7,784 nucleotides of DNA. Origin: a virus. Lineage: Monodnaviria; Loebvirae; Hofneiviricota; Faserviricetes; Tubulavirales; Inoviridae. Numbering within the stretch: position 1 is the first letter of the stretch; the number at the start of each line of letters is the position of its first letter. The stretch is from IMG/VR virus record IMGVR_UViG_2648501498_000001; one strand, 5' to 3'. The position numbers and the translations under genes are program-made. Below, in pieces: positions 1 through 7,784 of the stretch. The notes under the pieces are model-generated. The model did not search any database. It saw only the letters and a list, made by a program, of their open reading frames with translations, and was not told where the DNA came from.

Positions 1-33
1 GTGCGCATAATGTGACACGCGTTATGTTGAAAA
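1..33 (+). other. dif-like Xer recombination site (site 1); window begins inside it
   Basis: Sequence GTGCGCATAA-TGTGACACGCG-TTATGTTGAAA. As I recall it, E. coli dif is GGTGCGCATAA-TGTATA-TTATGTTAAAT. The XerC-arm-like and XerD-arm-like blocks are conserved, but the central region is 11 nt instead of 6. Confidence 0.5.
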
Positions 34-64
34 GGCCGCTGCGATACTTTCCACCGCAGCGGCC
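34..64. other. Perfect GC-rich stem-loop between the two dif-like sites
   Basis: GGCCGCTGCG (34-43) pairs perfectly with CGCAGCGGCC (55-64); 11-nt loop 44-54; flanked by AAAA (30-33) and TTTTT (65-69). Could also act as a bidirectional intrinsic terminator. Confidence 0.6.
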
Positions 65-66
65 TT

Positions 67-92
67 TTTATACATAACGCCATTGTGCGCAC
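67..92 (-). other. dif-like Xer recombination site (site 2), inverted relative to site 1
   Basis: Reverse complement of 67-92 is GTGCGCACAA-TGGCG-TTATGTATAAA: the same XerC-like arm (one mismatch) and TTATGT XerD-like arm, with a 5-nt central region. In single-stranded form 1-33 can pair with 67-92, giving matched arms and an unpaired central bulge. Confidence 0.45.
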
Positions 93-2677: not shown

Positions 2678-2851
2678 ATGTCTGTTAATTCGGATTCAGT
2701 TTCCACGCAAATTAATGCTATTTGCGTGGGGATACCTGATGTGTCGGGGATTTATTCCTCGGCGTTTTTAACGGGATTTTCACTGCCAGTATTTTGTTTT
2801 TTTCTTGGCATGATTATTTCCACAATTTGGAGTTTAATAAGAAGGCTTTAA
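2678..2851 (+). CDS. Small hydrophobic protein (57 aa), candidate minor coat protein (gpVII/gpIX-like)
   Basis: Hand-read ORF MSVNSDSVSTQINAICVGIPDVSGIYSSAFLTGFSLPVFCFFLGMIISTIWSLIRRL. C-terminal TM-like segment with basic tail; starts 5 nt after the previous stop and ends 2 nt before the coat gene ATG. Weak RBS. Confidence 0.4.
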   Translation: MSVNSDSVSTQINAICVGIPDVSGIYSSAFLTGFSLPVFCFFLGMIISTIWSLIRRL

Positions 2852-2853
2852 TT

Positions 2854-3102
2854 ATGTTTGCAAAAATGACCAATTTTTTTAAGGGTGTTGATAAGAAAGT
2901 TGCAGCTTTATCTTTTTCCGCTGCTTCTGCTCTTGCTGTATCTCCGTCTTTTGCTGGTACAGTCGATTTTTCATCATTGACTAACAGCATTGATATGTCT
3001 TCTGTTTCTGCTGTTATTCTTTCTATCGGTGTTGCAGGAGTTACAGTTTATCTGACTTTTGCTGGCGTTCGTAAAGTATGGGGAGCCATCAGAAGTATCT
3101 GA
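2854..3102 (+). CDS. Major coat protein (gpVIII-like) precursor
   Basis: 82 aa from the ATG at 2854 (AAGAAGG upstream). Signal peptide ending SFA|GT, then a mature peptide of about 49 aa with a hydrophobic core and basic C-terminus (VRKVWGAIRSI). Followed by a strong intrinsic terminator, as for Ff gene VIII. Confidence 0.75.
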   Translation: MFAKMTNFFKGVDKKVAALSFSAASALAVSPSFAGTVDFSSLTNSIDMSSVSAVILSIGVAGVTVYLTFAGVRKVWGAIRSI

Positions 3103-3411: not shown

Positions 3412-4893
<1,482 letters not shown>

Positions 4894-4907: not shown

Positions 4908-5198
<291 letters not shown>

Positions 5199-5209
5199 GA
5201 GGGTGATTT

Positions 5210-7523
<2,314 letters not shown>

Positions 7524-7524
<1 letters not shown>

Positions 7525-7640: not shown

Positions 7641-7784
7641 CAGGCCGCTTTTAAAGGGCAGCTATCGAGACGAACGACGCAAGGCGTGAGTCGTCCATGC
7701 ATTGATGTGGCCAGTTGATGAAATTGATGGGTTACAGCAATTCTGGTGATGACTGGCCTTCGGTTTTCATCAGTCCTGATAACA

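Follow-up and report, generated by a model that had tools for sequence, protein, structure and literature searches.

A probable CTXphi-type folded attachment site in an integrase-less filamentous prophage at Escherichia coli dif

Introduction

How does a filamentous phage that encodes no integrase come to lie in the Escherichia coli chromosome at dif? The question is raised by IMG/VR record IMGVR_UViG_2648501498_000001, a 7784-nt stretch of DNA (hereafter the window) that is one unit, or copy, of a filamentous (inovirus) prophage inserted at this site. Its Zot and secretin genes (5210 to 7524, + strand) identify the element as a filamentous phage and the + strand as its coding strand. All long open reading frames (ORFs) in the ORF list lie on that strand and are inovirus genes (Rep_trans, DUF2523, Zot and secretin), the remaining ORFs being at most 153 amino acids (aa) long. 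A preliminary description of the window had reported that the element carries no integrase of its own, and indeed none was found among the window ORFs using the ORF list, Pfam and PHROGs, no ORF being long or similar enough.

The same description had proposed that the first 92 nt form a folded attachment site (attP) of the type used by CTXphi, recognized by XerC and XerD (XerCD), recombinases of the host. We find that window positions 1-92 are very probably the attachment site of an integrase-less filamentous phage that integrates in the manner of CTXphi. The dif-like arms, the fold, the junctions at dif and the absence of an integrase all support this proposal, with the action of XerCD supplied by analogy; the strand that carries site 1, the crossover interval and the tandem arrays add to the evidence.

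Results

Two inverted dif-like sites open the window

Two inverted dif-like sites had been placed at 1-33 and 67-92. Both are present, site 1 occupying 1-32 and site 2 occupying 67-92, with a hairpin between them that we refer to as the tip. With E. coli dif, GGTGCGCATAA TGTATA TTATGTTAAAT, as the reference, the parts are as follows.

1 to 10, + strand: predicted XerC-binding arm of site 1, GTGCGCATAA; matches dif at 10 of 11 positions and pairs with 83-92.
11 to 21, + strand: central region of site 1, TGTGACACGCG, 11 nt; its TGT is the XerC side of dif TGTATA, and 13-18 form a bulge.
22 to 32, + strand: predicted XerD-binding arm of site 1, TTATGTTGAAA; matches dif at 9 of 11 positions and pairs with 65-77, T71 being bulged.
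34 to 64, + strand: tip hairpin, a 10-bp GC stem, GGCCGCTGCG (34-43) and CGCAGCGGCC (55-64), with an 11-nt loop (44-54).
67 to 77, - strand: XerD-arm-like part of site 2, reverse complement TTATGTATAAA; matches dif at 8 of 11 positions and forms the bottom strand of the folded XerD arm.
78 to 82, - strand: central region of site 2, reverse complement TGGCG, 5 nt; unlike the XerD side of the dif central region.
83 to 92, - strand: XerC-arm-like part of site 2, reverse complement GTGCGCACAA; matches dif at 9 of 11 positions and forms the bottom strand of the folded XerC arm.
7781 to 7784, + strand: AACA, which pairs with TGTT at 93-96 across the circular or tandem junction and closes a 100-nt hairpin.

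Alignment to host dif, which the preliminary description had suggested as a check, showed that the arms of both sites match it, with mismatches numbering one (XerC) plus two (XerD) in site 1 and two plus three in site 2. The outermost, eleventh base of the site 1 XerC arm is A7784 at tandem and right junctions, and a host G in the leftmost copy. When both strands of the window were scanned, sites 1 and 2 were the only dif-like arm pairs; in random sequences of matched composition (first-order Markov resampling), hits averaged 0.05 per sequence. On the XerD side, the GCG and TGGCG of the phage are unlike the ATA of dif. On the XerC side, phage TGTG and the bottom strand of dif TGTA would form three Watson-Crick pairs and one G-T pair.

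The sites are predicted to fold into a stable hairpin in single-stranded DNA

Folded in silico as single-stranded DNA (ssDNA), positions 1-92 reached -37.2 kcal/mol, compared with -13.0 +/- 2.5 for shuffled sequences (z = -9.64; none of 200 shuffles was as good). Positions 1-12 pair with 81-92, 13-18 bulge out, and 19-43 pair with 55-80 apart from the bulged T71, so that in the computed fold the expected duplex XerC and XerD arms surround a bulged central region. An unpaired central bulge of 11 nt against 5 nt had been expected. These are the lengths of the two central regions, which are, however, only partly unpaired: five positions pair (T11-G12 with C81-A82 and G19-G21 with C78-C80), leaving a 6-nt bulge at 13-18 on the site 1 strand. 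In the circular or tandem form, T93-A7784 supplies the eleventh pair of the XerC arm, and a sliding fold of the circularized window gave the 100-nt hairpin (7781-7784 plus 1-96) a free energy of -42.4 kcal/mol (z = -7.3). It is by far the most stable 100-nt segment of the + strand, the runner-up reaching -23.5.

The perfect 10-bp GC stem-loop reported earlier at 34-64 was confirmed (34-43 with 55-64), and A30-33 and T65-68 lengthen its stem to a perfect 14-bp inverted repeat. The tip alone (30-68) folds at -17.9 kcal/mol, and replacing it with GAAA weakened the total from -37.2 to -20.0. The earlier view that this perfect stem-loop is an extra feature relative to CTXphi does not hold. With the same parameters the CTXphi site (152 nt) folds at -41.5 kcal/mol, and its spacer of about 90 nt itself folds into a branched tip. 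Because CTXphi has this longer branched tip, the tip hairpin of the window is a compact equivalent and not an addition.

Host junctions place the crossover on the XerC side

The window is found in 13 complete E. coli genomes, which match at least 80% of its length with 98.5-99.7% identity. Two tandem copies, flanked by hipA and a LysR-family gene, are present in E. coli O166:H15 JNE070796 (99.7% identity). At the left host junction ...TTATGTTG is followed by GTGCGCATAA and then TGTGACACGCG, and at the tandem junction the window end runs into the window start. A perfect dif, GTGCGCATAATGTATATTATGTTAAAT, comes directly after position 7784 in the last copy; a second dif copy beyond the window end, which the preliminary description had asked after, is thus present in the matching chromosomes. 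Insertion elsewhere, for example in a tRNA gene, had been named as grounds for refutation and is ruled out by the prophage lying at dif beside hipA.

An empty and an occupied site were available for comparison. In WP8-S17-ESBL-08 (L199) the empty site reads ..ataattttGGTGCGCATAA TGTATA TTATGTTAAATgtgg, the whole stretch being ...ATAATTTTGGTGCGCATAATGTATATTATGTTAAATGTGG. In RIVM_C037794 (L201), which has the same flanks, ..ataattttGGTGCGCATAA is joined to TGTGACACGCG.., two phage copies follow, and ..AACAGTGCGCATAA is joined to TGTATATTATGTTAAATgtgg; the two copies thus sit between the XerC arm and TGTATA. Tandem copies (at least two) occur in both JNE070796 and RIVM_C037794. The left junction consists of the host XerC arm followed by the phage central region, an 11-bp spacer, and the right junction of the phage XerC arm followed by host TGTATA and the host XerD arm, a perfect dif. 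This is the CTX-type geometry, as expected from exchange on the XerC side with cleavage of the site 1 strand.

Since the phage and chromosomal XerC arms are nearly identical, the crossover is better mapped on Citrobacter plasmid pCY-CTXM-15, which carries a related inovirus whose attP is 97.9% identical. The plasmid's own XerC arm, AGTACGCATAA, is found at the left junction, whereas the right junction has the phage arm, AGTGCGCATAA, followed by the plasmid central region TGTACG and the plasmid XerD arm. The placement of these arms puts the exchange between position 4 of the XerC arm and position 4 of the central region. This interval is where XerC cleaves, and is compatible with a single strand exchange catalysed by XerC, for which XerD catalysis would be dispensable.

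The architecture of the site is conserved in a widespread family

The complete module of about 92 nt was found in 230 of 5426 complete E. coli genomes, in about 50 otherwise diverged inovirus contigs of IMG/VR, and in plasmid records from Klebsiella, Salmonella, Citrobacter, Pantoea, Arsenophonus and other genera. A scan of contigs with the tip-stem pattern was dominated by chance palindromes of GC-rich genomes and yielded one relevant contig, L040 (Lelliottia).

We aligned 34 distinct versions of the module, which share one architecture: a XerC arm; TGT, five or six variable bases and CG; TTATGTTGAAAA; the GC stem; a variable loop of 10-12 nt; a XerD-like arm; CGTCA or CGCCA; and a XerC-like arm. 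The TGT and terminal CG of the site 1 central region are invariant and the site 1 XerD arm nearly so. In site 2 the CATAA core of the XerD-like arm is invariant and its outer part variable, and the central region, read on the + strand, is CGTCA in most relatives and CGCCA in the window. The tip stem is conserved while its loop varies. Helix 1 is paired in 94.9% of cases across the 34 sequences. Columns predicted to be unpaired had an entropy of 0.84 bits, compared with 0.13 bits for paired columns (p = 2e-8); restricting the comparison to columns not fixed by the search patterns gave 0.89 versus 0.21 (p = 7e-6).

The bulge on the site 1 strand (window 13-18; alignment columns 14-16) was hypervariable, with 1.5-1.7 bits per column and 17 different central regions. 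Among these near-identical cassettes the length of the site 1 central region stayed fixed at 10-11 nt and its ends at TGT...CG.

Of 57 loci, 56 carry site 1 on the main coding strand, the outcome anticipated for a substrate formed by the packaged (+) strand. The arrangement also recurs in four attP lineages, all with dif-like arms, whose long and short central regions measure 11/5 nt (the window family), 10/6 (L186, L191, L193 and L194), 11/6 (L185 and L188) and 12/7 (CTXphi). The tips of these lineages differ in sequence, and GC-rich hairpins occur at the tip in distant ones. In the two IMG/VR inovirus contigs of the 11/6 lineage the attP measures 150 nt (L185, 1368-1517, - strand; L188, 3204-3353, - strand). 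Their XerD arms, TTATGTTGAG and TTATGTTACGG, are identical or nearly identical to those of CTXphi attP1 and attP2, and their XerC arm is of the E. coli type (CTGCGCATAA), linking the Vibrio and enterobacterial versions.

Phages with almost no other nucleotide similarity share the cassette at identities of at least 82-89%; between the window phage and L003 or L190 it is nearly the only nucleotide similarity. The Zot and secretin proteins of cassette-sharing phages are just 25-55% identical, and the cassette accompanies at least four Rep modules (RstA-like, pII/X-type, a 670-aa endonuclease type, and one in which no Rep was detected). Its presence on unrelated backbones points to strong selection, horizontal exchange or both. 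One contig (L170, - strand, 667 and 5613) carries two different variants about 5 kb apart, which indicates that two different phages or satellites share one dif as a mixed array.

Discussion

Proposed route of integration

By analogy with CTXphi, integration would begin with rolling-circle replication by the RstA-like Rep, yielding (+) ssDNA. The GC tip hairpin (34-64) would nucleate folding and site 1 (1-32) would zip to site 2 (67-92), producing XerC and XerD arms that are both duplex, and between them a central region in which five positions pair and 6 nt bulge out. Host XerC and XerD would bind this pseudo-dif and bring it into synapse with a chromosomal or plasmid Xer site. XerC would then cut the site 1 strand between A10 and T11 and swap it with the top strand of dif, the exchange being stabilized by the shared TGT. 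The XerD step would not be completed, since XerD could not finish the reaction when the other side of the central region is unlike dif, and the resulting pseudo-Holliday junction would be resolved by replication. The left junction (host XerC arm and 11-bp spacer) would be non-functional and lock the prophage in, and the right junction, a regenerated dif, would accept further copies. Regeneration of dif on the right explains tandem and mixed arrays, with the newest element nearest dif. As in CTXphi, such tandem prophages could be templates from which the RstA homologue drives rolling-circle phage production.

Several observations weigh against this reading. XerCD binding, catalysis by XerC only, resolution by replication and irreversibility are carried over from studies of CTXphi, which in part used the Xer proteins of E. 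coli (PMC3089051). The folded arms contain a G-T wobble, and many relatives have a G-A mismatch at position 3 of the XerC arm. A dif strand entering the phage hairpin would form two Watson-Crick pairs (T-A and G-C) and then meet a mismatch. Covariation is weak in the close family: 95.1% of cells are paired, but both partners change in just 3 of 37 pairs. This is because most pairs never vary, and we therefore rely on the independent lineages and on how differently paired and unpaired columns vary. BLASTP detected no similarity to CTXphi RstB or RstR in the window ORFs at the corresponding positions. Lastly, the observed junctions are equally expected from a XerC-first exchange on a duplex form of site 1.

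Alternatives to a folded substrate

This last point belongs to the best surviving alternative, integration as in VGJphi, in which a double-stranded replicative form would need only site 1 to recombine with dif, XerC acting first and replication resolving the intermediate, and site 2 and the hairpin would serve another purpose. Circular replicative forms do exist, such as a 9565-bp 'plasmid' (L003). Known Xer sites, however, have spacers of 6-8 bp. A duplex site 1 would have a spacer of 10-11 bp in every family member, compared with 6 bp in dif (PMC3089051). The second site and the long/short asymmetry are, moreover, conserved across four lineages with different tips, and a double-stranded site has no need of the coding-strand bias seen in 56 of the 57 loci. 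We consider this route unlikely.

A second alternative holds that the hairpin at 30-68 is solely a bidirectional Rho-independent terminator, a packaging signal or a minus-strand origin, and that the dif-like arms are relics of integration. The 10-bp GC stem is flanked by T-runs on both strands (TTTTTATAC on the + strand, TTTTCAAC on the - strand), as in a terminator. The tip also lies where the + strand operon (end 7718) meets the - strand ORFs, which end 11-13 nt from site 2, and, among the + strand hairpins that follow the pIV-like secretin gene, it is both the first, about 260 nt downstream, and the strongest, as a packaging signal might be. A scan of the window for terminator consensus matches passed over the tip hairpin, whose 11-nt loop exceeds the 3-8 nt that the scan accepts. 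The conserved arms, the spacer asymmetry, the strand bias and the junctions at dif are all left unexplained on this account, which we regard as very unlikely. That two inverted Xer sites lying close together bound a segment moved or inverted by XerCD in double-stranded DNA, like the pdif modules of Acinetobacter plasmids, is scarcely credible given spacers of 11 and 5 bp instead of 6, a 31-nt hairpin in place of cargo and a fixed orientation in 56 of 57 loci. The invertible module and the purely transcriptional hairpin were both rejected as sole explanations.

Possible further roles of the tip and of the cassette

With 1-92 read as a CTXphi-type attP, the tip could still have a second function. 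By its sequence it looks like a bidirectional intrinsic terminator. In Ff phages the packaging signal is an orientation-specific (+) strand hairpin that follows gene IV and is required for assembly; the position and strength of the tip fit such a signal by analogy. An additional role as terminator, packaging signal or minus-strand origin is a reasonable possibility, if rather less than an even one. A search of Rfam gave a single chance match below threshold (ncr1175, 23.5 bits against a gathering score of 60, E = 0.85).

More tentatively, the 100-nt hairpin may be a portable, multi-purpose cassette that clamps a XerCD substrate, terminates transcription or signals packaging, moves between backbones and targets plasmids. 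The GC tip would then clamp the ssDNA fold that creates the XerCD substrate, would in double-stranded DNA insulate the prophage from host and convergent phage transcription, and might double as a packaging signal. Its movement between unrelated inovirus backbones appears to proceed by recombination. If TGT beside a XerC arm suffices, plasmid dimer-resolution sites would be targeted too, and filamentous phages could travel on conjugative megaplasmids across the Enterobacterales.

Plasmid arrays, relics and circular records

Tandem inovirus arrays with the same attP cassette occur on a Citrobacter youngae plasmid (OV141394.1; L202, 5219-22810) and a Klebsiella sp. LY plasmid (NZ_CP022441.1; L203, 1-18000). 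Both sit in the Xer site AGTACGCATAA TGTACG TTATGTTAAAT of conjugative megaplasmids, one a 362-kb IncFIB/IncHI1B plasmid and the other a 316-kb MOBH plasmid with eight attP places, and both have the same neighbourhood, with H-NS and thermonuclease genes. In the literature we found no paper that describes such carriage of filamentous phages by plasmids.

A relic of the cassette, in which the site 1 XerC arm is gone and the tip hairpin and site 2 are retained, occurs without phage genes (L199, 4931-7745; L201, 430-3262; L004, 3950-5013). At chromosomal dif it adjoins a SIR2-family gene and an ISNCY transposase remnant, and on ColV plasmids a gene of the STM4504/CBY_0614 family. Window 23-92 alone is matched, at about 81%, by about 865 E. 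coli records, and plasmids account for 489 of all matched places. The relics are probably what decay has left of CUS-1/Ypf-like prophages at their left ends, together with a retained accessory gene that may serve in defence.

Inovirus replicative forms may be what lies behind small circular records from E. coli, Citrobacter and Salmonella that were filed as untypable plasmids. In one (NZ_CP128883.1, 9565 bp; L003) Rep, Zot, secretin and the attP cassette are all present; NZ_CP069805.1 (10,242 bp) and NZ_CP140410.1 (7,938 bp) were matched by attP.

Gene content of the window

The genes of the + strand, in order, are listed below.

1102 to 2328, + strand: Rep, rolling-circle replication initiator and homologue of CTXphi RstA (Pfam Rep_trans, 1.9e-21).
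2794 to 3102, + strand: major-coat-like ORF.
3412 to 4893, + strand: g3p-like ORF with 18-nt repeats.
4911 to 5198, + strand: DUF2523 protein (Pfam).
5210 to 6268, + strand: Zot/pI-like protein of assembly and export (Pfam Zot, 1.7e-22).
6265 to 7524, + strand: secretin/pIV-like protein of assembly and export (Pfam Secretin, 1.9e-25).
Ending at 7718, + strand: small ORF 3' of the secretin gene, in an operon with it.

The Rep is 33% identical to CTXphi RstA (BLASTP, E = 6e-60), and its top matches among deposited phages are the RstA proteins of CTXphi and pre-CTX. By analogy it would make the (+) ssDNA that bears the folded site. Neither the window nor its attP had a nucleotide match among 50,697 deposited phage records (megablast, blastn), relatives being found at the protein level only.

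The g3p-like gene contains at least five 18-nt repeats (4435-4556) encoding Gly/Thr-rich units. It is about 126 nt longer in JNE070796 (1608 versus 1482 nt), so that the number of repeats varies between strains. The window's best promoter-like match (872-912; TTTACA, an 18-nt spacer and TATGAT, 10 of 12) lies just upstream of the Rep operon, where it overlaps the inverted repeat GCGCGCAT...ATGCGCGC; promoter and operator, or nick-site region, are its candidate functions. An AT-rich region separates attP from the divergent small gene; within it a tract unusually rich in G+C and in purines (340-470, GGGGAGGAGGACGGAGGAACGCC...) stands out and overlaps - strand ORFs of 65-71 aa, for which no family match was obtained.

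Significance

The mechanism (2005) and enterobacterial CTX-type examples, CUS-1 and YpfPhi, were known before, and the present finding confirms rather than discovers them. What the window offers is a very compact and cleanly delimited CTX-type attP for E. coli dif, with natural empty and occupied sites, and hence a convenient substrate for Xer biochemistry, which is mostly done with E. coli enzymes. It also corrects the common description of such phages as bearing 'a copy of dif'. The cassette is widespread, sits on unrelated inovirus backbones and is used for entry into conjugative plasmids, which bears on the spread of filamentous phages and their accessory genes.

Comparison with known systems

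The attP(+) of the Vibrio cholerae phage CTXphi was reportedly described by Val et al. in 2005, since when the mechanism has been known. It has two inverted dif-like sites with central regions of 12 and 7 nt (PMC3089051; reviewed also in PMC4246890). The window phage resembles CTXphi in having inverted dif-like sites that pair in (+) ssDNA; in its long and short central regions (11/5 compared with 12/7), which start with TGTG in both phages; in its site 1 XerD arm (TTATGTTGAAA, compared with TTATGTTGAGG in CTXphi); in the position of attP upstream of a divergent small gene and an RstA-type Rep (33% identity); and in regenerating dif at one end, forming tandem prophage arrays and lacking an integrase. 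It differs in that its site is 92-100 nt with a single perfect tip hairpin, whereas that of CTXphi is 152 nt with a branched tip. The window tip is itself terminator-like, whereas CTXphi has a separate terminator about 80 nt upstream. The XerC arm is of the E. coli type, GCGCATAA and not GCGTATTA. Unlike CTXphi, the window phage encodes its own secretin, and no similarity to RstB or RstR was detected in it.

VGJphi- and TLCphi-type integrative mobile elements that exploit Xer (IMEXs) likewise use host XerCD and integrate at dif. They have, however, a single double-stranded attP with a central region of normal length; VGJphi integration is reversible, and TLCphi has a degenerate XerD arm and proceeds XerD-first (PMC4246890, PMC5357621). 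Unlike the VGJphi type, the window family has a spacer of 10-11 bp in all relatives and a conserved inverted second site. Unlike the TLCphi type, the window has a XerD arm that matches dif at 9 of 11 positions and a crossover on the XerC side; no domain of the element-encoded activator that drives the TLCphi-type exchange was seen in the ORFs scanned against Pfam, among them only part of the small ORFs.

The UPphi phages are inoviruses of E. coli, Klebsiella, Citrobacter and Salmonella found in tandem at dif, with repeats that match just the first 15 or so bases of dif (Shapiro and Putonti 2020, PMC7307601). A match of this length fits a XerC arm plus TGT. In the paper the site is a simple copy of dif, and the words hairpin, inverted and attP are absent from its text (PMC7307601). 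The replication module of UPphi is IKe-like and not RstA-like as in the window phage. An element of E. coli H14, which matches 69% of the window at 98.7% identity and has a different replication module, may be UPphi-like.

The closest enterobacterial parallels are CUS-1 of E. coli O18:K1:H7 and YpfPhi of Yersinia pestis, inoviruses that also lie in tandem at dif and have an inverted pair of XerC/XerD binding sites, classed as CTX-type (PMC4266046, PMC4246890, PMC3089051). A group of prophages with a pII/X-type Rep (L006, L007, and L157 at 8700 bp) carries the same attP cassette as the window at about 82-86% identity, and we infer from size and gene layout, set against the published description, that it is CUS-1/YpfPhi-like. 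The window phage differs from this group in its RstA-like Rep and shares with it almost no nucleotide similarity outside attP. It is a new RstA-type member of the already known CTX-type class, whose mechanism of integration was already known.

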